NCBI GenBank assembly: GCA_964508365.1 | Contig: CAZDTP010000034.1 | Span: forward strand, 1-42,855 | Length of the DNA stretch: 42,855 nt | Source: an uncultured archaeon | Lineage (GTDB): Archaea; Asgardarchaeota; Lokiarchaeia; Sigyniarchaeales; SOKP01 | Direction: 5' to 3' | Part shown: positions 1-25,483 of the stretch, one piece after another | How positions within the stretch are numbered: the stretch's first letter is position 1 | Layout of the letters: each line of letters opens with the position of its first letter | The notes under the pieces: generated by a model | Told to the model about the DNA's origin: nothing | The model's database searches: none | Seen by the model: only the letters and a program-made list of their open reading frames with translations | Position numbers and translations under genes: made by a program

Positions 1-3000
1 AATGGGGCAGGTAAATCCAATATTATTGACGCTTTAACATTTGCTTTAGGTAGGTTAAGCAAAAAAACTATGAGAGCTAAGAGTCTTGAAGATTTGATTT
101 TTGCGGGATCCCGAGGTAAAAACCCTTCAAATAGAGCTTCGGTCACATTATATTTCGATAATTCAGAACAGATTTTTCCCGGTGGAACAGAAACATTTGA
201 GATTACTCGAACAATTCAACGAGGTGGGGGCGGAGGGTATAAGATGAACGGTAAAAATGCCACTAGAACTCAGATTCTTAATGCTCTTGCAGCTGCAAAT
301 GTAGATCCTGATGGAAGTAATCAATTCGTTCTGCAAGGGAAAATAGTAGAATTAACTCACATGAACCCAGAAACACGTAGAATATTTATTGAAGAACTTA
401 TTGGACTACAGAAATACGATGAGATGAAGGATGGAACTATGAAGGAACTAGAAAAGGCTGAAAGAGATCTAGGCCAATTTGAAGCAATTTTCAAAGAAGT
501 ATCATCTCAACTAAAAAAAGTTGAAAAAGAAAAGAATGACGCTTTAGCATGGAAAGAGTTAGATGAACAAATCAACTTATACAACGCTCAATTGATAGCA
601 TTAAAGATAGAGAAATTAAGGAAGGAAGAAAAAGATCTAGAAAAAAGTATTGAAGAATCTAATACAATCTTAGAAGAATTAAAAGAGAAATTAACAAGGC
701 AGGATGAAATTTTAAAACAAGAATCATTAGTTATGGAAAATATACAAAAAACAATAACTGAAAAAGAAAAAGAAAGGGAATTAATCACTGAAAAAATAAC
801 TCAATTTAAAACGCAACAATCTTCAAATCAAACATCTTTAGCCCTAGCAAATAAATCTATTGAAAAAATTTCTCAAGAAATTAATACTTTGGAAAAATTG
901 CAGATGATTCTTGATGAAGGTCAGACATTTGATACTTTAATTGAATCAGAAATAAAGGTTGTAGCAGATACAGAGAGTCTAATTGAAGCAGCAAAAGCAG
1001 AAATTGAGAGTAAACAACAAAAACAAGCAGATATTGATGCAAAAATTAAAGATCAAAACGATGTAAAAACAACATTTAATGGAGAAATCTCAATTATAAA
1101 GCAAAATATTTCATCGAATAAAGCTCAAATTAAAATTCTGAAAGAAAATATTAAAAAAAACGAAGAAAAAAAACAAAAATTAGAATTAGAACTTAACAAA
1201 TTAAAAGGAGAATCAGAAAGCATTGAAGAGGCGATAGCCAATACAAAAAATGAAGCTGAAGTAATAAGAAAAGAAATTGATGACTTAAATATAAAAATAT
1301 CAAAAGAGAACGAAAATCAACAGGATTTAGAAAAAGTTATTGTAAAACTTCAGGAAGATAAGAATAAACTTAGTTCAAAATCAGCAGATTTCAAATCTAT
1401 GTTATCATCACTAAATACAGAGATTAAGATGAACACCGATAGGATAGAAAAGTTGATCTCTGATAAAATTAAAACTGAAGAAAAAATAAAAGAATTAAGT
1501 AAAGGGAAAGACATAGAAGAAGCTTTAAAAGAGTTATTAAAGGAAAAACAAGCCCTAACTAATGAATTAAACATTTACCGAAAACAATTAAAAGATGAAG
1601 ATTCTATTTACAGAAAAAATGAACAAGAATTAGAATTATTGTTAATGAAACAGGATTCTATTGAATCAGAAATTAATGATAACAGAAATAAAATTGATAA
1701 TATTAATACTAAGTTAAATCTATTAAAAAAAGAATTAACCAATCTTGAGAGAGAAAAACAAGATTTAGAACTAAAATCGTCAACTCTAAACGCAAATTTA
1801 ACTAAAACTAGCTCTGAATCAGAAGGGCTTAATGAAAAAAAAGATAACATTCAAAGACGATTAGGAGAGCTAACTACTGAGAAAAATAAATTGTCAGTTA
1901 AAATAGAAAATACTGAAAAAGATTACGAAAGAAATACAGAAGATATAACGGGAATCTTGCAAATATTAAACATGCTCACTCAGAACATCAATATCTCCGT
2001 CGAATCTATCAAGAGCAATATACAACAGTCTAATGCTGAGGCAATAGAGACATCAGCAGTCAACTTTAAACAATTTGTACTTGATATTATCGATATTATG
2101 AAAACGGTTGAAGACGTAAGCTCTGAAGCAGAAGCAGAAGCAGAACAGAAACCAGAAGTTGCTGAAATGTCTGAAACTCTTAAGTCTATACTTCAGACAT
2201 TAACTCTTTTTACTGAGAATGTTGACACAACGATAGATCAGTTAATTGATTCAGTAAAGGAAACTGCTGATGTAGAGATTCAACAATCTACATCAACTTT
2301 TGATAGTTTCGTTCAAGATTTAATGGAAATTCTTGAGAATGTATACTTATCATTGCGAAAACTCACTATGTCAAAATCGCAAGAGCTGTATAAACAGCTT
2401 GAAGAGATTACTGAAAATATCACATCTCAAAATATGGATCTAAACAAAATTGAGAAAGACTTAACTAGGATAAATACTCAAGAAAAGCATGATTCAGACG
2501 ACTTATCAGCAATTAATAAGAGATTAGAAGAAGTTAATAAGAGAATCAGCGAATTACATGAAAAAATAGAGAAATCTGAAGATGAGGTTAAGCAGAGGAA
2601 TATTATAATAGAAGAAAAACAAAAAGAGAATTTCAACGAAGAAATAAAAAATGTAAAACAACTCAAAGAGGCCTATTGGGAAAAAGTTTCTACTATCAAG
2701 GAAGATATCGAATTAAAGCAACAAGGGTTAGACCATCTGCAAAAACAACTTCAAGAATTGCAGGGAATACAAAATTTTTATGAAAAAATCATTGATATTG
2801 AGAATAATATCCAAGAACTAAATTCAAATATAGAAAATAAGAAAAATACTATAATTAACACTGAAGAAAACATTAAAAATCTCAATTTAGAACAAGATGC
2901 TTTAACTTTAAAAATCGAATCTCATATTTTAGAAAAAAATAAGTTTTGGGAGAATACAGAAAAGCTAAGAATTCATATTGGTGACCAGAATAAAAAATTA

Positions 3001-4368
3001 GAGAGTACAATGGACAAATTAAGAGCACTTGAAAATGTTATGATGATTATCAATTCGATTGAAGAATTAGCTAAGGAAAACTTGGAAGCTAACGCCAGTA
3101 TTACAACCAGTACTCAAGACATAGAGGGTTTTAATACCCAAGTAGAAGAGGTACAAAAGAAAGTCAATGATATCCAATTAGTCATAGATGCTTTAAGAGA
3201 AGATAAAAACAAAGAGTTGGAAGCACAAAAGAAAACTCAAAAAGAATTAAATAAATTCAATAAAGATCTTCAAAACATACAGGCAAAATTAAACGAATTA
3301 AATAAAAATAAAGAACGAGAACAGAAAATAATATCTCTTAACCAAGACATCAAAGAAACTGAGAAACAAATAGAATTAATAGTAAAAGATATTGAAAACA
3401 TTGAAATTGAGTTAAAACAAGAAGAAGATAAAAAGAACATAAAACAGGAAGAAATCAATAAAGAGATTCAAGGAAAAGATATATCCTGGCAAAAACAAAA
3501 AAATTATCAGAAAGTAATAAACGACCTACGTTCTGATCATTCGATGGAAAATTCAAAACTAAACAATTTTGAATCAAAAAAGATTATTACTACAGATCAG
3601 ATAGAAACCCTTTACCAGAGATCGAAGGATTATGGCGCTTTGCCAGCAGTGACCGAAGAGCTCTCAGAATCTGGATTACAATCAGATATTTCTACAGCTA
3701 CTAACAAGAAAAAAGCTTTGGAACCAGTTAACTTAAAAGCTATTACGCAATTTGATACTGTAAAAGAGAGGTTTGACGAAATAGATATGAGAAGGCAAAC
3801 AATACAACGTGAAAGAAAAGCAATTCTCGACGCTATTGAAAAAATCGAATTAGAAAAAACTAGAACATTTATGAAGGCTTACCACGAAATTAATCGTGAG
3901 TTTGCTCGCATATTTCAGAAGCTTTCACCGGGGGGATCTGCTAAAATGATTCTTGATAGACCAGATAAACCTTTTGAAGGAGGATGTAGTATAGAAGCTA
4001 GACCTCGTGGGAAGCGTATTTCCAGTTTAGAAATATTGAGTGGAGGAGAAAAAACACTCGTCGCTTTGTCATTTATTTTTGCGGTTCAAGAATTTTATCC
4101 TGCGCCATTTTATATTATGGACGAAATAGATGCCGCATTAGATGGCCCAAATGTTCATAGGGTAAGTATGGTAATTAAAGAATTTTCCAGTCAAGCGCAA
4201 TTTATGGTAATAAGTCACAGAGAAGAAAATATTGTTAACGGTGACCGAATATATGGAGTATCTATGCAACAGAGTGGAATAACCGACATCTTTAGTGTCG
4301 ATTTAGAAGAAGAAGCGAAAAGGTTACTCGAACTTCCGGATGTGCCCCCTAATATTGAAGAAAATTAA
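1..4368 (+). CDS. smc: SMC-family ATPase (5'-truncated), atypical: no canonical hinge domain
   Basis: Frame 1 is open from base 1 (NGAGKSNIIDAL = Walker A), so the gene starts upstream of the window and the ORF-track start at 70 is internal. C-terminal head has LSGGE signature and YIMDEIDAALD Walker B/D-loop; long coiled coils between; followed by scpA and scpB. Confidence 0.95.
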   Translation, partial: NGAGKSNIIDALTFALGRLSKKTMRAKSLEDLIFAGSRGKNPSNRASVTLYFDNSEQIFPGGTETFEITRTIQRGGGGGYKMNGKNATRTQILNALAAANVDPDGSNQFVLQGKIVELTHMNPETRRIFIEELIGLQKYDEMKDGTMKELEKAERDLGQFEAIFKEVSSQLKKVEKEKNDALAWKELDEQINLYNAQLIALKIEKLRKEEKDLEKSIEESNTILEELKEKLTRQDEILKQESLVMENIQKTITEKEKERELITEKITQFKTQQSSNQTSLALANKSIEKISQEINTLEKLQMILDEGQTFDTLIESEIKVVADTESLIEAAKAEIESKQQKQADIDAKIKDQNDVKTTFNGEISIIKQNISSNKAQIKILKENIKKNEEKKQKLELELNKLKGESESIEEAIANTKNEAEVIRKEIDDLNIKISKENENQQDLEKVIVKLQEDKNKLSSKSADFKSMLSSLNTEIKMNTDRIEKLISDKIKTEEKIKELSKGKDIEEALKELLKEKQALTNELNIYRKQLKDEDSIYRKNEQELELLLMKQDSIESEINDNRNKIDNINTKLNLLKKELTNLEREKQDLELKSSTLNANLTKTSSESEGLNEKKDNIQRRLGELTTEKNKLSVKIENTEKDYERNTEDITGILQILNMLTQNINISVESIKSNIQQSNAEAIETSAVNFKQFVLDIIDIMKTVEDVSSEAEAEAEQKPEVAEMSETLKSILQTLTLFTENVDTTIDQLIDSVKETADVEIQQSTSTFDSFVQDLMEILENVYLSLRKLTMSKSQELYKQLEEITENITSQNMDLNKIEKDLTRINTQEKHDSDDLSAINKRLEEVNKRISELHEKIEKSEDEVKQRNIIIEEKQKENFNEEIKNVKQLKEAYWEKVSTIKEDIELKQQGLDHLQKQLQELQGIQNFYEKIIDIENNIQELNSNIENKKNTIINTEENIKNLNLEQDALTLKIESHILEKNKFWENTEKLRIHIGDQNKKLESTMDKLRALENVMMIINSIEELAKENLEANASITTSTQDIEGFNTQVEEVQKKVNDIQLVIDALREDKNKELEAQKKTQKELNKFNKDLQNIQAKLNELNKNKEREQKIISLNQDIKETEKQIELIVKDIENIEIELKQEEDKKNIKQEEINKEIQGKDISWQKQKNYQKVINDLRSDHSMENSKLNNFESKKIITTDQIETLYQRSKDYGALPAVTEELSESGLQSDISTATNKKKALEPVNLKAITQFDTVKERFDEIDMRRQTIQRERKAILDAIEKIELEKTRTFMKAYHEINREFARIFQKLSPGGSAKMILDRPDKPFEGGCSIEARPRGKRISSLEILSGGEKTLVALSFIFAVQEFYPAPFYIMDEIDAALDGPNVHRVSMVIKEFSSQAQFMVISHREENIVNGDRIYGVSMQQSGITDIFSVDLEEEAKRLLELPDVPPNIEEN

Positions 4369-4391
4369 AAATTATAAGCTTAAGGTGCCTA

Positions 4392-5402
4392 ATCGTTCCA
4401 GAAAATGAGAGTGAGGAGAAAAAATTTAACTTCAGCGAATGGAGTGTAAAACAATTACGAGATTTTGCAGGTAAGAATAATATAAAAATTCCCCCTAAAT
4501 CTAAAAAGAGTGATATTATAAAGCTTCTAGAAGAAATTTCTTTTCATCCGGAATTTGTAGATAGAACTCAAGAAGATGAGGATGTGGAAGAGGAATTAGA
4601 AGAGGAATTGATTGCTGGTGTAGAAGAAGATCCCGCATTACTTCACAAAGAAAAATTGGATTTAAAATTTTGGCAAAAACCCCCCTATTCTAGCTTATTG
4701 GATCCAGAAGTAGCAAAAGAGTCCAATGTTGCATTTTATGACCTATCTTCATTAGTAGATAAATTCTTTAATAATATGCTTCACGAAGATTTAATAAATT
4801 ATAAGATAGCAGGAATAGCGCTTAAAACTTCAGCAGTATTACATCATTACAAAATTTCTAGTATAATACGAGAAGAGGAACAGATTCAGAAAAAGGAAGA
4901 ATTAGCACAATTTAGAGAAAAGCATGGTAGATCAATACCCAAATCTTTACCACAACCTATTCAACCTAAAATGTTAATCTCCACAAAAGACGAATTATTT
5001 GACGCGATGAGATCTGCAATTATAGAGACTATGCAAAATAAAGAAAAGCTAAAGAGGCGAAGAATGAGACGGGAGGAATTAAAAGATCAAAAAATTCAAA
5101 TGAAATCTAAAGCGCAACTACCAAAAGAACTTTTAAAACACATTAGCGGGAAGGATCAAACAGTAGAAGAGTTGCATGAATCTTGGTTTAATAGAATAAA
5201 AACTAAAATAAAGCTCGATGGTAAAGAAACGACTTTTTTTGAAATGGCAGAAATTATTAATTCCAAAGAAGATAGCGATATTGGCAAGAAGTTTGCTTTT
5301 GTGCGTATGTTTTTAGCTTTAATGTTCCTCTCGACTGGTAATAAGTTAGAACTATTTCAAGACGAAGATTTTAAGAATTTCTCAATAAATTTAAAAAAAT
5401 AA
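4392..5402 (+). CDS. scpA: ScpA-like kleisin with probable N-terminal HeH/SAP-like extension; start uncertain (ORF track GTG 4584, but frame is open upstream and AAGGTG RBS lies at 4382-4387)
   Basis: Kleisin-like N domain (DLSSLVDKFF...IAGIALKTSAVLHHYK) and C-terminal winged helix (FVRMFLALMFLSTGNKLELFQDEDF); located between smc and scpB. The upstream in-frame sequence translates as protein-like VPENESEEKKFNFSEWSVKQLRDFAGKNNIKIPPKSKKSDIIKLLEEI. Confidence 0.8.
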   Translation: MVPENESEEKKFNFSEWSVKQLRDFAGKNNIKIPPKSKKSDIIKLLEEISFHPEFVDRTQEDEDVEEELEEELIAGVEEDPALLHKEKLDLKFWQKPPYSSLLDPEVAKESNVAFYDLSSLVDKFFNNMLHEDLINYKIAGIALKTSAVLHHYKISSIIREEEQIQKKEELAQFREKHGRSIPKSLPQPIQPKMLISTKDELFDAMRSAIIETMQNKEKLKRRRMRREELKDQKIQMKSKAQLPKELLKHISGKDQTVEELHESWFNRIKTKIKLDGKETTFFEMAEIINSKEDSDIGKKFAFVRMFLALMFLSTGNKLELFQDEDFKNFSINLKK

Positions 5403-5431: not shown

Positions 5432-6304
5432 TTGAACGAAAAGAATGATAAAGAACCTGAAAATCATTTTGATGCTGAAACGAATGAGGACGCATCTTTA
5501 AATGAGACTTATGGTGAAGACATTCCTCAAGAAGAAAAGAGTTCAGAAGATATTGAGATTGATTTAGAGATCACAGAAACCATAGAAGAATATCTTAAAG
5601 AAGATTTTGAAGAAGAAGAGATCAAAGAAGAGATTAAAGAAGAATTTAGTATCGAGGAAGAAGAATCATTGAGTATCGAGCCATCAGAAGAACGGTTAAG
5701 TGAACAAGATACCGAATTTGTTGGAGATGATAAGGATGAATCCCAAATACCTCAAGAACTCACGAAAGAAGAATTAGAATTACAATTAAAAATTCTACGG
5801 AGAAATTTAATAGAGGGTGCGCTCTACGCCGCTGGTAGGCCTTTGGATGTAGAAGAATTATCAACTAAATTAGAAATCCCAAAAAAAGAAGTAGAAGAAC
5901 TTGTAAGAGTTGTTGCTTTTGATTATTTAGAACATGAAGGTGCATTGATTGTAGCTCAAATTGGAGAAAAGTATCAAATGCAGCTAAGACCTGAACTTAC
6001 CGAGACAGTTTCCAAATTCGCTAAAGGTGGTGCTATTGCTGAGCGCTACTTAAGAACACTTACAGTAATTGCGTTAAAACAGCCAATTTTAAAGTCAACC
6101 GTTATTAAATTAAGAGGAAGCGGTGCCTATGAGCATATTAAATATTTATTAGAAAATGATTTAATCACAGCTGTAAAAAAAGGGAGGTCAGCTGAATTAA
6201 GCACATCTGATAAGTACGCGGAAATGTTTGGATTACCTAAAAATAAGGAAGAACTGAAAAGAATGATGATCTCACAATTAGGACTTGGAGAAAACACTAA
6301 TTAA
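5432..6304 (+). CDS. scpB: ScpB (kite) with long acidic N-terminal extension
   Basis: IEGALYAAGRPL, YQMQLRPE, TLTVIALKQPILKS, LRGSGAYEHIKYL and KYAEMFGL are ScpB tandem winged-helix motifs; GGTGA RBS at 5421 then TTG. Confidence 0.93.
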   Translation: MNEKNDKEPENHFDAETNEDASLNETYGEDIPQEEKSSEDIEIDLEITETIEEYLKEDFEEEEIKEEIKEEFSIEEEESLSIEPSEERLSEQDTEFVGDDKDESQIPQELTKEELELQLKILRRNLIEGALYAAGRPLDVEELSTKLEIPKKEVEELVRVVAFDYLEHEGALIVAQIGEKYQMQLRPELTETVSKFAKGGAIAERYLRTLTVIALKQPILKSTVIKLRGSGAYEHIKYLLENDLITAVKKGRSAELSTSDKYAEMFGLPKNKEELKRMMISQLGLGENTN

Positions 6305-11287: not shown

Positions 11288-13789
11288 ATGGGCGTTTTTC
11301 CAGAAAATCCTTGTGAATTTGCTGTAGATTTCATTCGTAAGATGAGAAGACATCGTGATATCGTTCAGATACCAAGTTCTCGACAAGTGCTATCTATCCC
11401 TAAATTAATTTTATCAAGGTATTATCGCAAAGGCGTGGTAACTGCTAACGATTACATAGAAATAAGCGCAGTGACTTCTTTTCCAGACAACCAAGAATTA
11501 GCAAAAAATCTAGCTTTTCAGATTCTCTTTCCTAATTATAAAAAGGACATTATGGATTCATTCTTTCAAGAAGATGATAAATTTGAAGGTGAATTTGGCG
11601 AAGAACTAGAAGAATCTGATATATTAACAGAACTTGATAAGCTACAAGAAATGATCGATGAAATTGAGATGACTAAATTACTAGATACGGACAAAATTCA
11701 AAAATTAGAGGATTTTTTGGAAGAATTAAATTCTAAACGAGAGGAAGAGCCTTATAAATCCGCTTTAAATTTTTTCAATGATGACTCAGAATTATTTAAA
11801 GAAGAGATTTCTTCTTTAGAAGAGTTGATACAAGAAGCGCAAAAAAGGTTAGAACAAAAAATTAACTCATTGAGTCCGGAAGATTTAAAAGCCGGTTCTA
11901 ATTTAGGTTTAAACGACATGATTCAGCAAAAATCCATACGAGAATGGGAAAAACTTGCAAGTAAGGCTCTCACTGATCAAAGCATCGTAGAAGATTTAAC
12001 GAGGTTAATTAATGCGAATAAACTTGACGATCTTTTAAAATCTATAAAATTTATTGGGGATACATCGGACAATCAAAATATACAGGAACAGATAAACCAG
12101 GTTAAAAATCAACTACAAAACCAGATTAATAATCTAGATCAACTATTTAATGCAGCGAAAACATTAGGTGAAACACCTAAATTTGATCAAGATAAAATTC
12201 TAAATAGCTCCTTAAACCAGTCCTCCTTTGAGCATAATTTCAATCTAGCTGACTCATTAGATCAGTATTTTGGAACCAATTTAAGAGAAGAGTTACTTAA
12301 TAAGCTAGATCAGCAATCTTTAAATTCTCAGCTAAGCCTATCATTGGAATCTTTGACAAAAAATGCCTTAGCAAATAAAACTTGGAATAGTTTATTTAAC
12401 CAAACCCTTGAAAATGCTATAAAGGAGGCAAACAATCAAAACATCAAGTTCGAAGCTCTAAAATCGCTTTCACATCAGATACAGCAATTAATGAATAGTT
12501 GTCCGAATATTCAATGTAGTCAGAAAATATCTCAAAAATTGCCCGATTTAATTTCTCAAACATTAGCGGCTTGTGATACGCCAGATCAATTAAAAAATGC
12601 AACTGAGTTCTTAAGGAAAATTGGTTTAAGCCCTAACACTGATGACATTAAAAGAATTGGAAAAGAATTAGGTATGTCAGAAGAGGATATATATGAACTT
12701 GTGGAACCTGATTATCAACTGCTAAAAAAAATGGTTGAAGAAAAAGTCGCCGATTTTCAAAGGATTAGCAATCTGATTAACCAACTGCGAGATCAACTAA
12801 ATAAAGAAAGAATCAAAGAATTACTAAGCAGCGCATTAGCCAACAATAACCGTGATGCCTTAGCTGCTATTGGCCATTACAATATGGGTGAGGCATTAAA
12901 AGGGGCGCAACAGATTGGTGGAAAAGAAGGCCAAGATAAACTGATCTCTTGTTTATCTGCGGGAAGTGGCGAAAACCTACTTAAACAATGGTTTATTCAT
13001 CGGAATAGTTTACCTGAAGAAGTTAAAGTGAAAGTAAAAGAATTAGCAAAAAAAATGTTAATTGATTTAGGTGTCTATTATTCCAGAGCACGATTAGGTA
13101 GTGCAACAACGGGTACAATACCGATTAATGTAGTAAGGCCATATTCAATCGGGGATGATTTTGAAAACATAGATTTAGAGGAAACAATATTTAACCTTTT
13201 AGAAAAAGGCAAGAAATTGGATCACATCAATTATGACGATTTTTATGTTTACGAGACTGCGAAGGGATTGCGCTCATTTTGTTTTGAACTTGATATCAGT
13301 GGTTCTATGACAGGTGAAAAACTTGCATATATGGCGATTTGTGTGACGATGTTAGTATATGGCATGAGAAAAGACGAAATTGGTGTTGCTTTTTTCGAGT
13401 CAGATACGCATGTATTAAAGAATCTATCGGAAAAAGTAGATTTGGAAAAATTAGCAGATGATTTACTTACGGTTTCTGCTAGGGGAGGTACCCGGCTTCA
13501 AAGTGCTTTAGAATGGGCAAATAAACAATTCAAAGAAAATTCTAGCTCTCGTGAAAAATTAAATGTTCTATTTACTGATGCAGAAATTTTCGATATTCAA
13601 CAGGCTAATGAAGAATTAAGAAAATTTCGTTCTTTAAATGTAGATTTCGTATTAATTTCTCCAGAATCCTCCTTTAATTTAAAAGAAGCCAAAAATATGG
13701 TAAAAAATGCTAGAGGGCAGTTGTTAACAATTAAAGACTGGAATGAATTTCCCAAACTTATCTCAGAGATTATTAAATCGAGATTTTAA
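11288..13789 (+). CDS. VWA (MIDAS) domain protein, CoxE-like partner of the AAA+
   Basis: C-terminal MIDAS: DISGSM (DxSxS), GGTRLQSAL (T), FTDAE (D); preceded by a long helical region; AGGAGGT RBS. Confidence 0.85.
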   Translation: MGVFPENPCEFAVDFIRKMRRHRDIVQIPSSRQVLSIPKLILSRYYRKGVVTANDYIEISAVTSFPDNQELAKNLAFQILFPNYKKDIMDSFFQEDDKFEGEFGEELEESDILTELDKLQEMIDEIEMTKLLDTDKIQKLEDFLEELNSKREEEPYKSALNFFNDDSELFKEEISSLEELIQEAQKRLEQKINSLSPEDLKAGSNLGLNDMIQQKSIREWEKLASKALTDQSIVEDLTRLINANKLDDLLKSIKFIGDTSDNQNIQEQINQVKNQLQNQINNLDQLFNAAKTLGETPKFDQDKILNSSLNQSSFEHNFNLADSLDQYFGTNLREELLNKLDQQSLNSQLSLSLESLTKNALANKTWNSLFNQTLENAIKEANNQNIKFEALKSLSHQIQQLMNSCPNIQCSQKISQKLPDLISQTLAACDTPDQLKNATEFLRKIGLSPNTDDIKRIGKELGMSEEDIYELVEPDYQLLKKMVEEKVADFQRISNLINQLRDQLNKERIKELLSSALANNNRDALAAIGHYNMGEALKGAQQIGGKEGQDKLISCLSAGSGENLLKQWFIHRNSLPEEVKVKVKELAKKMLIDLGVYYSRARLGSATTGTIPINVVRPYSIGDDFENIDLEETIFNLLEKGKKLDHINYDDFYVYETAKGLRSFCFELDISGSMTGEKLAYMAICVTMLVYGMRKDEIGVAFFESDTHVLKNLSEKVDLEKLADDLLTVSARGGTRLQSALEWANKQFKENSSSREKLNVLFTDAEIFDIQQANEELRKFRSLNVDFVLISPESSFNLKEAKNMVKNARGQLLTIKDWNEFPKLISEIIKSRF

Positions 13790-13793
13790 AACC

Positions 13794-16178
13794 ATGACTA
13801 AAAACCTAGTATCTGAAATAATATCTGAAAGGTTCGGAGTCGAAAAATACAAGGAATCATTAAAGTATCCAATAAATAAAATTAATATTATCTCGTTGAA
13901 AGAAAATCCGATAGAGATAAGAGCAATCATTTTTGATAAGGAACGTGAGTATCATTTAATTATTGATGAGAAGAGAAATGAAATTTTTCATGATTGCGAT
14001 ATGTTTTTTTCTGGAATGGATATCGGTAATAAAGTGTGTCCTCACTTGATTACGCTTCTTTTAATGGTAAAACCGTCAATTTCAAAGAATGTCTTAAACA
14101 ATATTAATAATTTCAACTTTACATCTGAGGACTATAATTCTAAAAAAAAAAGTAAAAACTATTTAGAATTAGCTAATACTTCTATTGAAAATAATAATTG
14201 TATCGAAGGTTTAAATTATCTCAATAAAGCTATATTTAATAATGAGGATTGTGAGCCTATAATTGAAAAATATCTAAAGACTGCTATAGAAAACAATCTA
14301 AACTTAGAACTTTTTGAATTTCTCCAATCAGCCTATAGCAGTGATTTAGGTCCATATCTTCATGCTTACGATAATTTTATAGAAGAAGGCTTCAAATCGT
14401 TTTTAAAATCAGCTTCGATATATACTTTTTTTGATCTTCTCCGAATTATTGAATTTATTGATAAAATTTTAGATTACTACGAATTTAAAAATGAATCATT
14501 TGTCTTTTCTTTAATTTCTAAATTAATTATGATGGCAAACTCCAATAAATTTAACGAGAAATATTTATCAATCTATTTTATTAAGAAAAAATACGAAATC
14601 CTCTCGAAATCTAATCCGATATTTAAAGATATTCTCACATCAAAAGATTACGAAGCTTTTAAACACAAACTGTTGAACTATTTTTTAGACGAAATTGATA
14701 ATTTTATCATATTAGACAAATTAAAGTTGATGAAAAGACAATTCGATGTATTCGAAATTCCGAAAAAACGATATTACGAAGAATATAAAACCTATAAAAA
14801 TGAAATAAAAGAATTAGAAAAGAAAGTCTATTTAAAGAAATTTGCATTTTTAAGATATTTTAAGGAGAAATATAACATTAAAAAAACAAAAATTGATTTT
14901 CGGAAAAAACGTAATGCTTATGAAGTTAATCACGATAAGGAAAACCTTAAAAATCCCGCTTATATTTACGTGATAAACCATTTAGGATTCTACGGAGTGA
15001 ATGAATCCATAATTAAACCTTCAGAAATAGGTTTAAATTACTTAATATTTGAGGAATTATTTCTAGACGATTTACATAATTATCATGATATTCTCTATTA
15101 TAAATTAAAGTTTTGGGGTGAAGAAAATAAGTACGAAATTAATACTGTTGATGTTTTCTCATTGTTAAGTAAACCTATGGAATATAATTATGATGTTGAT
15201 CAAAATTACTCTAATATTGATGAACTTACAATAATTGAATGGGATTTAGCGAGTAAACCAAGCCAAGGTAGTTTAGTCAATGCTTACGGTGTGCAAATCG
15301 TTATACCTGATCAAAACACAGCCCTTTTTCACGATATTAAACCATTTGATTTATGTTTCTGCCAGAAAAATCCAACAAAAATTGAGGGAAATCTAATTAG
15401 AACAAATATAGTTAGAACAATAAATATTATAACAAAATGTTCTTTTAAAGATGCTATAAGCAGCATAGAAAAGGGGATGAGTTTTATCGAAGGTTATTAC
15501 CCTTTTTCTTTAGTTTCATCTGTTCTCAAGAAAAAAATCAGTCCCTTCGAAGCATATGAGAAAGCTTTAAATAATGCCAATAAGCAGTTTATACCGTTTT
15601 ACGGGAAGTTCGTAAAAGCTTTTAGAAAATTCCTATTTCATTTTATTAATAAAGAAAAAGGGTATATTTACGAAATTTTAAAAAAGAACCCGAGAGAAAA
15701 TGCAAACCAATTCATAATCTTATTAAATATAACAACCGAACTTTCAGGATTAGATTTACTTTATCCTGAGATATTCTATGAATTACTCAACGAGGATACT
15801 GATTTAAATGAATTTAGAAAAAATTTAATGAAAAAAATACATTCGATTATAAAAGACATCCTTAAGTTAAGGGAAATCGGAGCAACAGAAGTGTTCAATC
15901 TTAAAAAAATGCGAAACACACCCTTTGTCAAATACTCGAATGAAATTCTTAAAATAAGAAAAGAAGAATTTGAACAATCAAAAGTTTATTGTTATACTCA
16001 GGATGAAAAATTATCGTATCAAATTTCTGAGTTAATAAAAACCTACTATGGTGGTCAATTATCGGAAATATTACATTTAAACCTGAAGACCACTATTAAC
16101 CAAGAGGTCTTCAACAAAATTTTAAATTTCGCTTCTAAATTAAATCTGAAGTTAAATGTGATTAATAGATTGCCCTAG
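13794..16178 (+). CDS. large helical protein with N-terminal SWIM-like zinc finger
   Basis: HDC-x12-CPH (13989-14045) SWIM-like pattern; ATG at 13794, four bases after the VWA stop, is more plausible than the ORF-track start 13743. Confidence 0.6.
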   Translation: MTKNLVSEIISERFGVEKYKESLKYPINKINIISLKENPIEIRAIIFDKEREYHLIIDEKRNEIFHDCDMFFSGMDIGNKVCPHLITLLLMVKPSISKNVLNNINNFNFTSEDYNSKKKSKNYLELANTSIENNNCIEGLNYLNKAIFNNEDCEPIIEKYLKTAIENNLNLELFEFLQSAYSSDLGPYLHAYDNFIEEGFKSFLKSASIYTFFDLLRIIEFIDKILDYYEFKNESFVFSLISKLIMMANSNKFNEKYLSIYFIKKKYEILSKSNPIFKDILTSKDYEAFKHKLLNYFLDEIDNFIILDKLKLMKRQFDVFEIPKKRYYEEYKTYKNEIKELEKKVYLKKFAFLRYFKEKYNIKKTKIDFRKKRNAYEVNHDKENLKNPAYIYVINHLGFYGVNESIIKPSEIGLNYLIFEELFLDDLHNYHDILYYKLKFWGEENKYEINTVDVFSLLSKPMEYNYDVDQNYSNIDELTIIEWDLASKPSQGSLVNAYGVQIVIPDQNTALFHDIKPFDLCFCQKNPTKIEGNLIRTNIVRTINIITKCSFKDAISSIEKGMSFIEGYYPFSLVSSVLKKKISPFEAYEKALNNANKQFIPFYGKFVKAFRKFLFHFINKEKGYIYEILKKNPRENANQFIILLNITTELSGLDLLYPEIFYELLNEDTDLNEFRKNLMKKIHSIIKDILKLREIGATEVFNLKKMRNTPFVKYSNEILKIRKEEFEQSKVYCYTQDEKLSYQISELIKTYYGGQLSEILHLNLKTTINQEVFNKILNFASKLNLKLNVINRLP

Positions 16179-16225: not shown

Positions 16226-16383
16226 CTACTATTATCAATTATAATTTTTAATTTAATTCTCAAATAAAATTATTTAAATCTTTATTTCGAATAATACAAT
16301 TATAGACGAATATCTTTAGTATTAAATAATTAGAATAAAATATTAAATTTTTGTGCTCAAAGACGAAATTACTGGGCGTAACT

Positions 16384-17592
16384 ATGAAATTATCTGAATT
16401 TGGAATAAAATTTCTGCGTTTAGCACTTCGCATAGACAAACATATCAAGGGATATGTAGATTTTTATATTGGTCCTAAAAAATTATGTAAAATCGTTGAC
16501 AATGAGGTTATAACTTCACCAAACAAACTATTAACCGATTGCAAAGCTTTACAAAAAGATTTGTTTAAACAAGGTTACGAAAAAAAACGTGAGCGATATT
16601 TAGAAAAAATATTAATGGCGATGAGGACTTCGATCGGAATTCTAAACGGTATCGAGATTTCAATTAAGGAACAATTTTTAAGGCTATATGATGTAGTCTT
16701 ACAGCCAGTTAACGAATCTGAATTAGATAACTTAAAAGAAGAGTTTAACGCAGCGTATGGTGGTATTGGAAGTTTAAAAAAACGAATGAACGATTTAAGA
16801 GCACGACGAACTGTTCCTGAGGGTATGGTATTTGAATTATTTAAGAAAGCTCTCAACATCACGAGCGTGCGAACTAAAGAATTGCTTGTCGATCTCTTAC
16901 CTGAAAATGAATATATTAATTTAGAGCTAGTAAAAAATAACAATAATAATAAAATTAAATGGACGTATTACAATTGGTATCTGGGTAATTTTCGCTCCCG
17001 AATAGAAGTCAACCCGAATTATAACATGTATTGGACATCATTTTTGCCTGCTGCCGCTCACGAAGCATACCCCGGCCATCATACAGAATTTATTGTCAAA
17101 GAACAGAGACTATATCGCGAATTAAATCAATTTGAACACTCAATCCTGCTACTAAACTCGCCCAAGTTAATAATTAGCGAAGGAATAGCGAATATAGCAG
17201 TGAATATGCTTTTCAACTATCGGGAGCAAGCAGAAATTAGTTTACGAGAATTTTGTCAAGACTCGTCAAAAGAATCTTCTATTGAAGCATTAATAGCGCA
17301 AGGCAAAGTAAAAGGTAAACAATCGCTTTTTGGGTATAATTTCGCTTATCATGCTCTAATTGATGGATGGAGCAAAGAGAAATTAATTCGATACGCAACC
17401 AGTTTTGAAATCCTTAGCCAAGAAATTATAAAAAATCGAATAAATTATCTTTTAAATCCAGTACATTCAACTACTGCTTTCTCGTATAGTATAGGAAGCA
17501 AACTAATAATAAACAAATATGGGGGATTTCCTTCGGTTAAGAACTTTCGAGACCTGCTTATCAACCCAATTCTCCCCTCCGATTTAGCATAA
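16384..17592 (+). CDS. DUF885-like putative metallopeptidase
   Basis: AAHEAYPGHH motif, SEGIA downstream, YSIG near the C-terminus; ATG 16384 preferred to the ORF-track start 16351. Confidence 0.7.
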   Translation: MKLSEFGIKFLRLALRIDKHIKGYVDFYIGPKKLCKIVDNEVITSPNKLLTDCKALQKDLFKQGYEKKRERYLEKILMAMRTSIGILNGIEISIKEQFLRLYDVVLQPVNESELDNLKEEFNAAYGGIGSLKKRMNDLRARRTVPEGMVFELFKKALNITSVRTKELLVDLLPENEYINLELVKNNNNNKIKWTYYNWYLGNFRSRIEVNPNYNMYWTSFLPAAAHEAYPGHHTEFIVKEQRLYRELNQFEHSILLLNSPKLIISEGIANIAVNMLFNYREQAEISLREFCQDSSKESSIEALIAQGKVKGKQSLFGYNFAYHALIDGWSKEKLIRYATSFEILSQEIIKNRINYLLNPVHSTTAFSYSIGSKLIINKYGGFPSVKNFRDLLINPILPSDLA

Positions 17593-17930: not shown

Positions 17931-18202
17931 GAATTTGAACAATCAAAAGTTTATAGTTATACTTAGGATGAGTAATTATGGTATCAGATTTCTGAGTTAA
18001 TAAAAACCTATTATGGGAGCCAATTATTGGAAATACTAAAAATAAATATGAAAACCGCTATTAACCAAGAAATTTTTAACAAATTTTTAAATTACGCTTA
18101 TAAATTAAACCTAAAGCTAAATCTAAAGCTAAATGTGGATAATTGATTGTTCTAGCTGTAATTTCCCATATACACCATCGTAACCGGGGATAAACCAATA
18201 AT
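17931..18202 (+). repeat. diverged direct repeat, copy 2 (pseudogenised SWIM-gene 3' end with in-frame stops and a 12-bp tandem duplication)
   Basis: Translates EFEQSKVYSYT*DE*LWYQISELIKTYYGSQLLEIL...; contains TAAAGCTAAATC-TAAAGCTAAATG duplication. Confidence 0.93.
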
Positions 18203-19109: not shown

Positions 19110-19377
19110 AAAACTCGGAATATAATGTAAAGATCTTAGAGATGAATATAAATAGAAATATTTAATTTCCACGTTTAGTTTTTTGAAAAGTAATAAATAA
19201 CAAATTATTGATACTTATAACGGGTGATCAAAATCAAAATAACTAAAAATTCTTCTACCAGACATCTTAACCAATAAAAAGTTCTCTCAATTCATAAAGA
19301 GAGTCAATGAAATGCAATATTTTTAAATTAAACATATTTCTTTATTAATAATATAATTTTATAATAATCGCAGAATC

Positions 19378-20877: not shown

Positions 20878-23800
20878 ATTTCCTCTGAAGAAGAAGAAGG
20901 CAGAATAAAGCAAGGAACGATAGCACAATTCATGAGAAAGCGAACTCAATTAGTGGGTTTTGAATTTGGCTTTTGGAAACATCAGCAATACGCCTCCGAA
21001 TTTCTAGATAATGCGTTAGATGCTATTGAAGAATTTCAGTGGAATGAGTTACAAGAGGGTGATTCACGAACTCAATTTTCTCTCGATCAAGAATTGACTT
21101 TAGAAAATTTATCGATTCTTCAAGAAGCGCAAATAGATGAAATTGATCAACCTCTATCAAATGAAGCAAAATTTGCTCTAATGCAAGAAATAGGAATAGA
21201 ACCTTCAGAACCATCTAACACTGAAATAGAATCAACCATAGATATGGAAGAAGACGAATCTGGAGAAATTATCGATACAGAAGAGATCGAAGTAGAAGAA
21301 GAAGTAAAAAGAATTGTTGATGATATGAATGAAATCATAAAACCAGTGGAGCCAATTGTAGATATTGAACCACTTGTTATTATTCGCTTGAGAGAATCTG
21401 AAGCTGCTTCCTTTTTAACATCTGAATTATCCCAGAAAAATGTTATGACTTATACATTCGAAATTTTTGATAATGGTATAGGCATGCACAAAGGAGACAT
21501 GCGAAAGTTTGGTAAATATCTAGCCTCTTCAAAAAGCCTTGAATTGAAGCAAACCCGTGGAAGTCAGGGTTTTGGAGCTCCGAGTGCATTTAGCGATGCT
21601 CAAAACACAACTGGAAAACCTATAGTAGCAGTATCAAAGTCAAAAGGTACTATATATGCTACTGTTTCAGAATTTTTTACAACCTCTAAAAATGAAAAGA
21701 AATATTTGGTTCGTCCTACAGAAGTAGACAGCAATTTCCTACATGGTACATATATAAAATTACATTATTTAAATGTAAAATACACCCGTGGTTTCGTAGA
21801 TACCTATATTAAAGAAACAGCTTTAATGAATCCGCATATAACTCTTATTTTTATCGATCCATATGGGAAAGAATGGATTTATAGACGATTAGTCTCAAGT
21901 TTTCCAAAACAACCAAAATATGCTAAACCTCATCCGTCTTCAACAAATATTGGTGACTTACAAGATCTCTTAACAAAATCAGAAAAATTAACAATATCCG
22001 CATTTTTACAGAATAATTTCGTGAGAATAAGTTCAAAGACAGCAAGAGAGATTTTGAATATTGCAGAAAGAAACATAGAAGATAAATTATCTCTAATGAT
22101 ACTTAAAAATGGATTTATAAACAAATTAGCGAAAAGAAGCGATCCAATATACTTTTTTAAGTATGAAAAAAGGGTTTATGGGCGTTCAACAAAACCTAGA
22201 GACAAATTAATTATTTACGATATTGATTCCGAAGAATTGAAGAATAACTATTGGGAATCCATGGATAGACATAACAAATTTGATAAAGATTTGGAAAGAT
22301 TATACAGAGAAATAAAAAAACATCAAGATCGTATGGATAAATCTGAGACAAAAAAAGATATAAAGAAAATTGAAAGAGAAATTAGTAATTTATTAAACAA
22401 TATAGATAAAATTTTACTAGAAAGAGATAAAATTAAAAACGAATTAGAAAAGATTTTTAAAGATAATACTGGGTTAATAGAGGCAAAAAAATTAAAAAAT
22501 CGTTCAGAACTCGAAGATTTAATCAATGAAGTTCAAATTTCTAAAGTAAAACCTTCTGAATTAACTAACAACCAATTTAATTCACTATTCCATGCTTTTA
22601 AATCTATCAAATATATGTCTCCACCAACAGATACAGCGATCCCAGTCGGAGATATTGTATTAGAAAGTACACTGATTAAAGAAATAGGGCTTAAAATATC
22701 CGAGAACATTGATGATTTTGATGATCCTATTGAAAACATAAAAACATCTTTACATATTCTTCAAGAGGATTTGAAAAGAGATCAAGACAAAAAAAAAAAA
22801 GCTAGAGAAGGTGAAATTATAGAAGATATTACCATAACACCTGACGATGTTAAAAATTTCAACTCAAGAATTCTCGCTAGTATGGATATTGAAGATCAAT
22901 ATTCAGAACTAATTGAATTTCAGGAAAAAATTGAAAAAAATATAAATTCTACTAAAGAAGTTCAGAAAGATTCTTATCAGGAAATATTTGATTTCTTCGC
23001 CGATAATTACACTAAAGATGATGATTTTGTAAGTGCAGAAACAAGACCACCTACTTCGGGCAAAGGATTAGCATATATTGTTGAAGCTGCATTAGCGTAT
23101 TGTAACGATTCGAAGAAACTTGATACACCCAAACGTTCCAGGGATGTTCTCTCAAGATTCGTTAATAGAACTCCTAAGTTAAGAGATAGTGCTGATTGCG
23201 TAATCACTAAAGCAGTTCAATCTGTGAATTGGAAAAATTATAAATTAGATGTGTATGATAATAATCTTCCAAAAGGTCCAATTAAACTTCTCGTAAATGT
23301 TTCAGGTCCATATGTTCATTTAATGTTTAAATCACAGTCAAAAAACGCATTAGCTGAAGATGAAGAATTACTTAAAGAGATAAAATTTTGTCTTGAGGCA
23401 ATAGGAAGGCGATTAAGAGTATATCTTAATCGTAAAGCGAATATTCGAAAGAGCGAGAAAAGAGCTGGTTTAATTGAGAGATATATCCCAATCTTTGTTC
23501 AAAGTGTCTTTAATATTGTATCACAAGGAGGAGGAAAATATAAGGGGAAAATTTCACAAAATGAATTGGAAAACTTGATGAAAAATGCAATTGGGATTAA
23601 AGCGCCTCCAAAAATTGAAGAAAAGTTATTACCCAAACCTGAAAAGATAGAAGCTATTGAATTAGAACCTAAAAAAGTTGAGATAAAATGGGAAGACACA
23701 GGAATTCAGACAAAAGTAATTTCTAAAACAGTAGAACCAAAGGATGAGATTCTCAGTGAAAAAACGCTTCTTAACTGGACTATAAGTCAACTAAAAGAAT

Positions 23801-24279
23801 ATTGTGTAGAAAAGAACATTTCTCTACCTTCTAACGCGCGAAAACCAGAAATAATTAGATTTATTCAAGAATTTTATGATAAGGGAGAACCAGAAAAAAG
23901 GATTCCTTTAGTCGAAGTAGTAAAAATACCTTTAACAACCGAACCAGTTACATCGGGAACCCTAGCAGAAAAGAGAAAACAATTACAAATTACTAATGGT
24001 GAAATAATTCATCAACAGCCGGTTAAAAAAGAATCAACAATTAGTACTCAACAACTTAAACCAGTACTAACTCAAACTCAATTGCCAATAATTACTACAG
24101 AGAAAATATCAGAAGTATTATCCGAAGATTGGCAACCAATAACAGCGTTAATATTTAAAATGAAAATAAAAGATATGATGGATGCTCGGTTTTTACAGAT
24201 AAAACTGAAGGAATTGGAGCGTAAGGGATTGGTAATGGTAGAAACCAAGATGGGAAAAAAACATTGGAAATTAAAATAG
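20878..24279 (+). CDS. top6B: DNA topoisomerase VI subunit B, greatly enlarged (three insertions plus C-terminal HeH/SAP-like and winged-helix-like regions)
   Basis: GHKL N-box EFLDNALDA, DNGIG, RGSQGFG, HGT; H2TH; PPT, TRPPT, RFVNRTP, NVSGPYV transducer motifs. The conserved N-terminus (TIAQFMRKRTQLVGF) begins upstream of ATG 20932; in-frame stop at 20854; start inferred at ATT 20878 after GGTG. Confidence 0.9.
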   Translation: MSSEEEEGRIKQGTIAQFMRKRTQLVGFEFGFWKHQQYASEFLDNALDAIEEFQWNELQEGDSRTQFSLDQELTLENLSILQEAQIDEIDQPLSNEAKFALMQEIGIEPSEPSNTEIESTIDMEEDESGEIIDTEEIEVEEEVKRIVDDMNEIIKPVEPIVDIEPLVIIRLRESEAASFLTSELSQKNVMTYTFEIFDNGIGMHKGDMRKFGKYLASSKSLELKQTRGSQGFGAPSAFSDAQNTTGKPIVAVSKSKGTIYATVSEFFTTSKNEKKYLVRPTEVDSNFLHGTYIKLHYLNVKYTRGFVDTYIKETALMNPHITLIFIDPYGKEWIYRRLVSSFPKQPKYAKPHPSSTNIGDLQDLLTKSEKLTISAFLQNNFVRISSKTAREILNIAERNIEDKLSLMILKNGFINKLAKRSDPIYFFKYEKRVYGRSTKPRDKLIIYDIDSEELKNNYWESMDRHNKFDKDLERLYREIKKHQDRMDKSETKKDIKKIEREISNLLNNIDKILLERDKIKNELEKIFKDNTGLIEAKKLKNRSELEDLINEVQISKVKPSELTNNQFNSLFHAFKSIKYMSPPTDTAIPVGDIVLESTLIKEIGLKISENIDDFDDPIENIKTSLHILQEDLKRDQDKKKKAREGEIIEDITITPDDVKNFNSRILASMDIEDQYSELIEFQEKIEKNINSTKEVQKDSYQEIFDFFADNYTKDDDFVSAETRPPTSGKGLAYIVEAALAYCNDSKKLDTPKRSRDVLSRFVNRTPKLRDSADCVITKAVQSVNWKNYKLDVYDNNLPKGPIKLLVNVSGPYVHLMFKSQSKNALAEDEELLKEIKFCLEAIGRRLRVYLNRKANIRKSEKRAGLIERYIPIFVQSVFNIVSQGGGKYKGKISQNELENLMKNAIGIKAPPKIEEKLLPKPEKIEAIELEPKKVEIKWEDTGIQTKVISKTVEPKDEILSEKTLLNWTISQLKEYCVEKNISLPSNARKPEIIRFIQEFYDKGEPEKRIPLVEVVKIPLTTEPVTSGTLAEKRKQLQITNGEIIHQQPVKKESTISTQQLKPVLTQTQLPIITTEKISEVLSEDWQPITALIFKMKIKDMMDARFLQIKLKELERKGLVMVETKMGKKHWKLK

Positions 24280-24289
24280 TGTGATAATA

Positions 24290-25483
24290 GTGGCGAATAA
24301 AACTGAAAGTAAAAAGTGGGATATTAAAGAAGCTAAAAAGCTATTTCAAGAATATTTAGAAAAGGGGTTAGAAGAAGAGAAAAAAGAAGCAATATTACCG
24401 GAAAACACTGTCAAAATCGACGATCTAAATAAAAAACAAACTTTAGAGCGTATCTACAAATTAACGGATTCCATAATAGAAATGATCTATGAAAATGGAA
24501 GACCCTCAATTAAAATGCCTTCGAGAACGAGTGCAAATATAATCTGGGATGAAGAAAATGATTTACTACTATTAGGACAGCAGATCATGGAAAAACATTT
24601 TCATTCGCTAGGTAGTGTTGCTGACATTACAAGATTAATGAAAGTACTTGAGAAAGTCAACGAACTATTGCTCAAGGATATGCATGCAACAAAGAGGGAA
24701 ATTTTTTATTCAGCAGTTCAACTATTTGGAGATCAGAAGAATAGCGATAAAAGTATTGAGGATGTCGCTACAATGTTATATACAACTAGGAACTCTACAC
24801 ATATAGTTGCTTCAGCTAAAGGATCATGCATTGGACGTCTTAGAATTAGAGATAAGAATGATATAATTGATTTGGAAGGTTTGGGAAGTGGCGGTTGGAC
24901 GATTAGTCCAATGCTTGATAATGTTGAAATACTTGAATCAGATGCGGAATTTATTTTAGTCCTAGAGAAAGATGCAGCAATGATAAGATTATCAGAGGCC
25001 AGATTTTGGAGAAAATACCCCTGTATAATATTAACAGCAAAAGGTGCAGCGGATATTGCTACACGTATGTTCCTAAGAAGAATCAGTAAGGAGCTCCGGT
25101 TGCCTGTTTTTACTCTAGTTGATAGCGATCCATATGGGCATTATATTCATTCAGTTTACTTACGAGGATCTAAACGTTTGAGTTATGAATCACCCTTTTT
25201 AGCAACTCCCGATATAAAACTCTTAGGTGTACTTACGAGGGATTTGGAAAAATATAAAATTCCCAACGATTGTAGAATCCCTATGAATCAAACAGATATT
25301 AAGAGGACTAAAGAGATGTTAAGCGAAGATTTTGTAAAAAAGAATAAAGCTTGGGAAACAGATCTTAAATTAGCTCTAAATTTAAAAATGAAAGCGGAAA
25401 TTCAAGCTCTCTCGACTTTTGGATTTGAATTCTTAACGGATCAATATATCCCTGAAAAATTATCAACTGGAGATTGGATATAA
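24290..25483 (+). CDS. top6A: DNA topoisomerase VI subunit A (Spo11 family)
   Basis: Catalytic Tyr in TKREIFY, TOPRIM EKDA and DSDPYG, KAEIQAL; directly follows top6B. GTG 24290 preferred (ORF track 24281). Confidence 0.96.
   Translation: MANKTESKKWDIKEAKKLFQEYLEKGLEEEKKEAILPENTVKIDDLNKKQTLERIYKLTDSIIEMIYENGRPSIKMPSRTSANIIWDEENDLLLLGQQIMEKHFHSLGSVADITRLMKVLEKVNELLLKDMHATKREIFYSAVQLFGDQKNSDKSIEDVATMLYTTRNSTHIVASAKGSCIGRLRIRDKNDIIDLEGLGSGGWTISPMLDNVEILESDAEFILVLEKDAAMIRLSEARFWRKYPCIILTAKGAADIATRMFLRRISKELRLPVFTLVDSDPYGHYIHSVYLRGSKRLSYESPFLATPDIKLLGVLTRDLEKYKIPNDCRIPMNQTDIKRTKEMLSEDFVKKNKAWETDLKLALNLKMKAEIQALSTFGFEFLTDQYIPEKLSTGDWI

Follow-up and report, generated by a model that had tools for sequence, protein, structure and literature searches.

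A helix-extension-helix domain upstream of the annotated start of an Asgard archaeal kleisin, and its relatives on topoisomerase VI subunit B and other proteins

The helices with which all kleisins bind the SMC neck are preceded, in two eukaryotic complexes, by an N-terminal tail. In cohesin (Rad21/Scc1) this tail makes contact with DNA and leads it through the N-gate (PMC7507959), and in condensin I the N-tail of the kleisin CAP-H is reported to regulate loading (PMC9797191). We analyzed an appendage at the same position in a 42,855-nt stretch of DNA from an uncultured Lokiarchaeial (Asgard) archaeon (contig CAZDTP010000034.1 of assembly GCA_964508365.1; hereafter, the window), in which the full ScpA-type kleisin gene (4392..5402, + strand; 336 codons plus stop) lies between smc and scpB. 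The gene shares with bacterial and archaeal ScpA (PDB 6ivh, 4i99, and 5xns) the gene order smc-scpA-scpB, an N-domain detectable with profiles and, by weaker profile matches, a putative C-terminal winged helix; it differs in an additional N-terminal helix-extension-helix (HeH) domain, an acidic linker, and a probable near-cognate start codon. As in the cohesin and condensin I kleisins, the appendage is N-terminal to the SMC-neck-binding helices. Here, however, it consists of a folded domain plus a long acidic linker in place of a short basic peptide, and the analogy is positional only.

A second comparison concerns topoisomerases. The cooperation of MukB with topoisomerase IV and of condensin with topoisomerase II rests on direct interaction or functional dependence. 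The window likewise holds genes for an SMC complex and for a type II enzyme, topoisomerase VI (Topo VI), which would act on the same chromosome, and the tail of Topo VI subunit B (Top6B) carries a module related to the kleisin domain; the presence of this module in one of the two proteins does not follow its presence in the other. With a probability of approximately 0.7, we favor the reading in which the kleisin starts at a near-cognate ATC codon and the HeH module is a general, mobile DNA tether rather than a device that couples kleisin to Topo VI. Domains of this class are familiar, and no new principle is involved.

Coding status and start codon of the kleisin extension

The kleisin frame was open from position 4359, and no ATG, GTG, or TTG was found ahead of GTG 4584..4586 (+), which is the first canonical start, is used in open reading frame (ORF) lists and public gene calls, and removes the domain. 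Upstream of this GTG, codons 4440-4535 translate to WSVKQLRDFAGKNNIKIPPKSKKSDIIKLLEE, with the letters and coordinates that an earlier, sequence-only reading of the window had given. That reading had taken the stretch to be coding and had named loss of the extension from orthologs as the outcome that would count against it. Such loss was not observed: the extension was kept throughout the genus. In a search of 40 related genomes, the kleisin plus its extension was recovered across the genus in at least 20 genomes at 63–94% identity, aligned from residue 1 or 2, and the frame was open in every kleisin ortholog. For 50 codons around the module in 28 loci, the mean proportion of synonymous differences (pS) was 0.72, that of nonsynonymous differences (pN) was 0.17, and the median ratio of nonsynonymous to synonymous rates (dN/dS) was 0.14. 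The dN/dS was equal in the subgroup without a canonical start. A ratio of 0.14 with saturated synonymous change indicates that the extension is protein-coding and under purifying selection.

If instead the upstream stretch were untranslated, as a decaying remnant or a conserved noncoding leader, the kleisin would begin at GTG 4584. The absence of ATG, GTG, and TTG from 4359 to 4583 would then be expected, as would the many public gene calls that begin at the equivalent GTG. The selection on the 28 loci with saturated synonymous change, the open frame retained by every ortholog, the ATG found at the predicted start in some relatives, a peptide that clears a Pfam cut-off and folds confidently, and the apparent genome-wide habit of near-cognate starts (all described here or below) make this explanation extremely improbable.

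Public clusters of 272–273 aa from close relatives begin at the GTG equivalent to 4584, and public clusters of 315–316 aa begin at a TTG within helix 1 of the domain. Because the public gene calls of the closest relatives are truncated, the sequence-only reading was right to call the domain "hidden." For annotation, this means that the closest gene calls shorten the kleisin to 272–316 residues, so that the domain is lost or halved, and that any survey of Asgard SMC complexes that draws on those gene calls overlooks it. The predicted tryptic peptides of kleisin residues 1–64 include FNFSEWSVK and SDIIKLLEEISFHPEFVDR.

The likeliest initiation codon, judged by its position, by alignment, and by a census of orthologous loci, was the near-cognate ATC at 4392..4394 (+), which coincides with the extension start given in the sequence-only reading. 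It stands 4 nt behind a Shine-Dalgarno (SD)-like AAGGTG (4382..4387, +), and no other codon from this element to the Trp codon at 4440 differs from ATG by a single base. In DNA alignments, the GGTG core was kept in nearly all orthologous loci 3–7 nt ahead of the start position, and ATG occupied the same site in four of them (L016, L022, L047, and L062). The census of 35 orthologous loci yielded 31 ATH codons (ATC, ATT, or ATA), three ATG codons, and one unclear case, and the codon was always 15–16 codons ahead of the conserved Trp and 3–7 nt past the SD core. At the start itself, ATC-GTT-CCA-GAA of the window (4392) aligned with ATC-CCA-GAA in L013/L014 and with ATG-CCA-GAA in L016. In four loci (L010, L011, L013, and L014) an in-frame stop directly precedes the ATH codon, so initiation does not lie further upstream. 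Some genomes without SMC directly upstream keep both the SD and the ATC; thus, the kleisin start is independent of coupling to SMC termination. We conclude that the kleisin most likely initiates at ATC 4392 and not at GTG 4584.

Two other origins of the extended product were considered and rejected. Fusion of SMC and kleisin by frameshift is at odds with the in-frame stops that follow the SMC stop in several orthologs, and with the genomes in which SMC is not directly upstream, yet SD and ATC are present. A start at ATT 4371 or ATA 4374 is at odds with the position of both codons ahead of the SD and with ortholog stops that separate them from the conserved ATH.

Near-cognate initiation looks routine in this metagenome-assembled genome (4.07 Mb, 31% G+C; the window is its contig C34). 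Genome-wide, 54 unshadowed ORFs had at least 40 coding-like codons ahead of their first ATG, GTG, or TTG (for example, C8:40156-41004(+), C47:13201-14727(+), C17:18930-19937(-), C60:12678-13271(-), and C14:23973-25145(-)), and such stretches included a GKGGVGKT P-loop, a GLIGAGG Rossmann start, and an IPAIDIRKGK HisA/F-like start. GGTG precedes ATG, GTG, and TTG at ORF 5′ ends across the genome; behind GGTG at these ends, ATT, ATA, and ATC were 4-times to 10-times more common per occurrence than AAT, TTA, and TTT, and ACG was perhaps enriched too.

A described example of an SD-directed near-cognate start is that of bacterial infC (AUU). The kleisin resembles infC in having a weak AUH start behind a good ribosome-binding site that has been kept over a long evolutionary distance; it differs in its archaeal host, in which near-cognate starts would occur in a few per cent of the genes, and in having no known autoregulatory loop. 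The weak AUH start was kept though synonymous sites are saturated and ATG is one mutation away, which suggests that low kleisin output may be tolerated or favored. The window is a clean case of two phenomena meeting, in that a weak start conceals a domain.

Fold class of the domain and its likely ligand

The HeH/SAP-type domain covers kleisin residues 14–50 (4431..4541, +), with helix 1 at 4446-4475, a basic extended loop, and helix 2 at 4506-4541. The region (residues ~14–50) has a net charge of +4, and its loop is basic (PxKSKK). When the kleisin was read from 4392, Pfam Ish1 matched residues 14–46 with 27.9 bits (curated cut-off 26.6), and Rho_N, SAP, and HeH were weaker alternatives. The AlphaFold2 model, built with a 36-module alignment, contained helices at residues 19–28 and 39–50 (predicted local distance difference test [pLDDT] ~85) and an extended basic loop, with disorder on either side. 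Among the 36 module sequences, Pfam matches were found to Ish1 in 29 and to Rho_N in 29 (both at E ≤ 0.01), to HeH in 25, and to SAP in 9.

Structure searches pointed toward the same class. The top Foldseek matches of a 72-residue model were CDNF/MANF SAP-like domains (TM score 0.78, root-mean-square deviation [rmsd] 1.6 Å, E > 1), followed by emerin LEM, the Rho N-domain, and the SAP domain of a plant SUMO ligase. VIA-align, a search over 48,161 chains that is independent of Foldseek, returned the SAP domains of SLX4 (Z 5.1, rmsd 2.1, 46 aligned), PIAS1 (Z 5.1), and E1B-AP5 (Z 4.7), and also near the top the Rho N-domain (Z 4.7), Tho1 SAP (Z 4.0), and emerin LEM (Z 3.9). The structure lists were thus enriched in SAP, Rho-N, and LEM domains, at scores too low to be decisive for so small a domain. 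The module profile gave weak matches against PDB sequences (Tho1 SAP, E 0.17; R2D2, E 0.003, without a passing stretch).

Profile matches and the predicted model together place the domain clearly in the SAP/HeH/Rho-N/LEM helix-extension-helix class, the exact family within the class being less clear. The sequence-only reading had proposed this class, and the Ish1 match above its cut-off and the two-helix model agree with it. With the SAP, HeH, LEM, Rho_N, and Ish1 families (PF02037, PF12949, PF07498, and PF10281), the domain has in common a length of approximately 35 residues, two helices with an extended basic loop, the hydrophobic pattern W/L-x-V-x-x-L-K/R ... K-x-x-I-I-x-L-I, and probable use as an add-on tether on chromosomal proteins. 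Examples in the class are the SAP domains of Tho1, PIAS1, SLX4, and Ku70, the LEM domain of emerin, and the N-terminal domain of Rho. The module differs from the rest of the class in forming a distinct subfamily, W-T-V-K-x-L-K-x-[FY]-[CA], of one Asgard family.

The module probably binds DNA. Members of the class have other ligands too: Rho-N binds RNA or single-stranded DNA (ssDNA), LEM binds the protein BAF, and the SAP-like domain of MANF binds BiP. The module might be an adaptor for protein or for RNA/ssDNA, by which one family-specific partner recruits several unrelated proteins. The order of the Foldseek matches would suit such an adaptor, since the best ones were CDNF/MANF bound to BiP and the next ones emerin LEM and the Rho N-domain; so would the Rho_N matches in 29 of 36 modules, the gelsolin-like and GIFT-like hosts described below, which have no obvious need of DNA, and the restriction of the module to a single family, which is what a partner evolving along with it would lead one to expect. 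Its basic character, above all in the loop, argues against an adaptor, as do the lysine-rich tails or Cys/His motif, typical of nucleic-acid binders, that sister lineages have at the same place. No candidate partner was identified, and we consider an adaptor role unlikely.

Copies of the module on other proteins

In Top6B, the HeH/SAP-type module occupies part of the tail (23758..23883, +; helices at 23782-23811 and 23842-23880). It matched Pfam HeH with 26.0 bits (E 7.8e-6), under the cut-off of 28.9, and scored 74 bits with a hidden Markov model built from the genome's own modules. In the AlphaFold2 model of the last 180 Top6B residues, helices were predicted at residues 16–25 and 36–48 (pLDDT ~80). 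The gapless match between the kleisin and Top6B (23776-23871), to which the sequence-only reading had drawn attention, was reproduced with 10 of 32 positions identical, 23 of 32 positive, and a BLOSUM62 score of 75, which was reached by none of 200,000 shuffles. In six-frame phmmer searches of the whole genome, the kleisin and Top6B peptides matched each other (E 0.001 and 0.02) and two further proteins. The mutual matches and the shuffle test bear out the earlier claim that the kleisin extension is homologous to the module of the Top6B tail.

A genome-wide scan, which the sequence-only reading had suggested as a check, was run with a profile of the copies that this genome contains. It found exactly five copies on four proteins, namely the kleisin, Top6B, a gelsolin-like protein (two copies), and a GIFT-like protein (one copy). 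The gelsolin-like protein (C41:29765-30895 (+), equal to L001:5769-6896) carries two tandem C-terminal modules that clear the Ish1, HeH, Rho_N, and SAP cut-offs; its match to Pfam Gelsolin was weak (E 0.01). Its architecture resembles the Asgard "gelsolin plus domain X" arrangement (PMC7444086). The protein is a candidate link from archaeal actin regulation to nucleic acid and, by its module, from actin to the chromosome. In the GIFT-like protein (C36:2086-3375 (-), equal to L002:2086-3366), an N-terminal domain like IFT52-GIFT/ABC_transp_aux (36 bits, cut-off 27.2) is followed by an acidic linker and a single HeH module at the C-terminus; the protein is 420–450 aa long and conserved across the genus. 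A literature search did not find any description of an HeH/SAP fusion to a prokaryotic kleisin or Top6B, or to gelsolin-like or GIFT-like hosts.

The kleisin and Top6B modules had the lowest pairwise identity (24%, compared with 33–44% for the other pairs). In a tree of 69 modules, which is a rough guide because the alignment is short, the modules grouped by host protein; the kleisin clade adjoined the gelsolin clades, and Top6B was furthest. Six members of the genus (G003, G010, G013, G018, G019, and G022) had a Top6B without the module, and in these six the kleisin module was present wherever the N-terminus was recovered (G003, G013, G018, G019, and part of G022). Module-bearing Top6B proteins were found in three genera. 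Since Top6B is without the module in six genomes and bears it in three genera, the fusions to kleisin and Top6B are old, yet gained and lost independently. Within this family, 64 of 68 genomes had the module subfamily, as did none of 6 in the nearest family, 2 of 28 in one other family, and none of approximately 200 further Asgard genomes searched. By these searches, it belongs to a single Promethearchaeota family (Loki-type Asgard archaea), 2 of the 28 genomes of another aside.

In the sister families, the same positions held other sequences. Sister-family kleisins (L071-L081) start with ATG and have K/S/T-rich basic N-tails of 30–170 residues in place of the HeH domain, and one kleisin (L073:671-1711) has a zinc-ribbon-like motif, CPYCGNEF...HKC, at that N-terminal position. 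The linker of sister-family Top6B is a basic, low-complexity stretch rich in S, T, K, and P. Tails of basic or Cys/His sequence suggest that different generic nucleic-acid binders fill the same positions.

From the shared module, the sequence-only reading had gone on to propose a coupled SMC-Topo VI chromosome-segregation system. In such a system, which that reading likened to MukB-Topo IV and condensin-Topo II, a common targeting tag would recruit SMC-ScpAB and Topo VI to a single site, or one complex to the other. The same module type on both proteins agrees with this, as does chromosome topology being the field of action of both complexes. The two loci are also close: smc-scpAB and top6BA were 16–28 kb apart on one contig throughout the family (G002:C84, G008:C11, G015:C222, G017:C53, G047:C63, G195:C58, and G232:C6) and likewise in one genome of another family (G026:C133). 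The coupling inference was not upheld, because gelsolin-like and GIFT-like proteins also carry the module, no other pair of copies is as divergent as those of kleisin and Top6B, which are not sister groups in the tree either, and six members of the genus retain the module on the kleisin while their Top6B has lost it or never acquired it. Moreover, sister families have unrelated basic, low-complexity tails in both places, and it takes no special explanation for two enzymes that work on DNA each to have a DNA-binding tag. A common targeting tag is, therefore, distinctly unlikely. The module neither co-varies between kleisin and Top6B nor is specific to them, and we regard their likeness as parallel use of one mobile module and not as a coupling device. 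A wider proposal, in which all HeH modules recognize one landmark (a DNA feature or a partner) and gather SMC-ScpAB, Topo VI, and the actin-regulating gelsolin into a primitive chromosome-cytoskeleton segregation hub, with kleisin dose tuned by the conserved weak AUH start, is very unlikely.

In the mechanism that we favor, ATC 4392 behind the SD-like AAGGTG would be read as initiator Met, and the protein would consist of the HeH domain, an HPEF[VI]DRT motif, an acidic flexible linker, and an ordinary ScpA-type kleisin core. The module would act as a general double-stranded-DNA tether that one family has attached to several proteins. On the kleisin, it would sit on the flexible acidic leash near the SMC neck and N-gate and offer a further point of contact with DNA during loading or anchoring; this reading follows from its place N-terminal to the SMC-neck-binding helices, where the cohesin N-tail contacts DNA. 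The lysine-rich N-tails of the sister Loki kleisins and the N-tail of the cohesin kleisin may have the same role and be interchangeable with the module. On Top6B, the module would add DNA affinity beside the C-terminal winged helix. If so, one Asgard family would have a eukaryote-style SAP/HeH tether on kleisin and Top6B where its sisters have basic tails, a small natural experiment in the ways by which SMC and topoisomerase complexes acquire additional contacts with DNA, and a testable analog of the cohesin N-tail.

Several observations count against this mechanism. The ATC start is a prediction from comparative sequence, and one orthologous locus (L040) lacks a near-cognate codon at the spacing found elsewhere. 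Foldseek returned nothing at E ≤ 0.001 for the 72-residue model, which is a small query, and structural Z-scores were at most 5.6, as expected of a 40-residue domain. Rho-N, LEM, and MANF SAP-like domains bind different ligands, so the fold by itself does not tell which ligand the module has. The 16–28-kb linkage of smc-scpAB and top6BA is compatible with a functional link, but linkage is no evidence for one.

Other parts of the kleisin and Top6B, and neighboring genes

Directly after helix 2 of the kleisin domain, the HPEF[VI]DRT motif (4545..4568, +) was nearly invariant in 28 orthologs. It was also found in a two-module relative (P0099), and none of the other proteins with the module had it; the motif may be a domain cap or a short binding motif. 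The acidic flexible linker to the kleisin core follows (4569..4634, + by translation; pLDDT <50 after residue 60). A profile of 18 kleisin orthologs matched the ScpA N-domain in the PDB (6ivh_A, E 9.3e-5, 108 positions) and C-terminal winged helices (5xns_C, E 0.023; 4i99_C, E 0.031; Scc1 6qpw_B, E 0.057). The ScpA/Scc1 winged-helix matches (E 0.02–0.1) are at the right end of the protein and are weak. Searches with the single kleisin sequence gave no ScpA match in Pfam at E ≤ 1 and no match in NCBIfam at E ≤ 0.01; we take this as a detection limit and not as an absent feature, the sequence being too divergent for those models. Close relatives are labeled "Rec8/ScpA/Scc1 (kleisin family)" by JGI. 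Some family kleisins (the public protein P0099, of 410 aa, and also P0098, P0106, and P0109) have two tandem N-terminal HeH modules and an ATG start.

The Top6B gene (20932..24279, +; 1115 codons) lies approximately 16 kb downstream of the kleisin region, and its product matched NF003218 with 316.2 bits (cut-off 274) and Pfam Topo-VIb_trans with 102 bits. The protein is about double the length that is usual for Top6B, and a long acidic insertion lies toward its N-terminus (residues ~40–150). Behind the HeH module, its tail continues with a disordered linker of 60 residues (23884..24063, +; pLDDT 31–44 over model residues 50–109) and a C-terminal winged helix (24097..24276, +) that AlphaFold2 predicted with a pLDDT of 88–94 as three helices and a beta hairpin. 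Foldseek matched the latter to ArsR/SmtB, Sso10a, and HlyU (probability 1.0, E 0.03–0.1). The winged-helix sequence was kept in all families of the order examined, whereas the HeH module was not. Asgard Top6B has been reported to have a C-terminal domain, about which nothing further is noted there (PMC9665070). The gene for Topo VI subunit A (24281..25483, +) directly follows top6B and matched Pfam TOP6A-Spo11_Toprim with 194.9 bits and TP6A_N with 61.4 bits.

The genes that separate the two loci in the window are unrelated and comprise a glycyl-radical enzyme, a Dam-type methylase, MoxR/VWA, CoaBC, and unknowns; the ORFs at 13743-16178, 16351-17592, 18129-18761, and 18816-19172 (118–811 aa) had no Pfam match at E ≤ 0.001. 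Upstream of the kleisin, the smc gene (1..4368, +) appears in the ORF list with its 5′ end cut by the window and a TAA stop at 4366-4368, and it matched NCBIfam SMC_prok_A/B (E ~1e-145) under the equivalog cut-offs. Downstream, ScpB (5432..6304, +) matched Pfam SMC_ScpB over residues 126–276 (111.8 bits) and TIGR00281 with 91.6 bits (cut-off 89.2). The start of ScpB in the ORF list is TTG, and a strongly acidic N-terminal extension of approximately 125 residues (5432-5806, +) precedes its Pfam domain.

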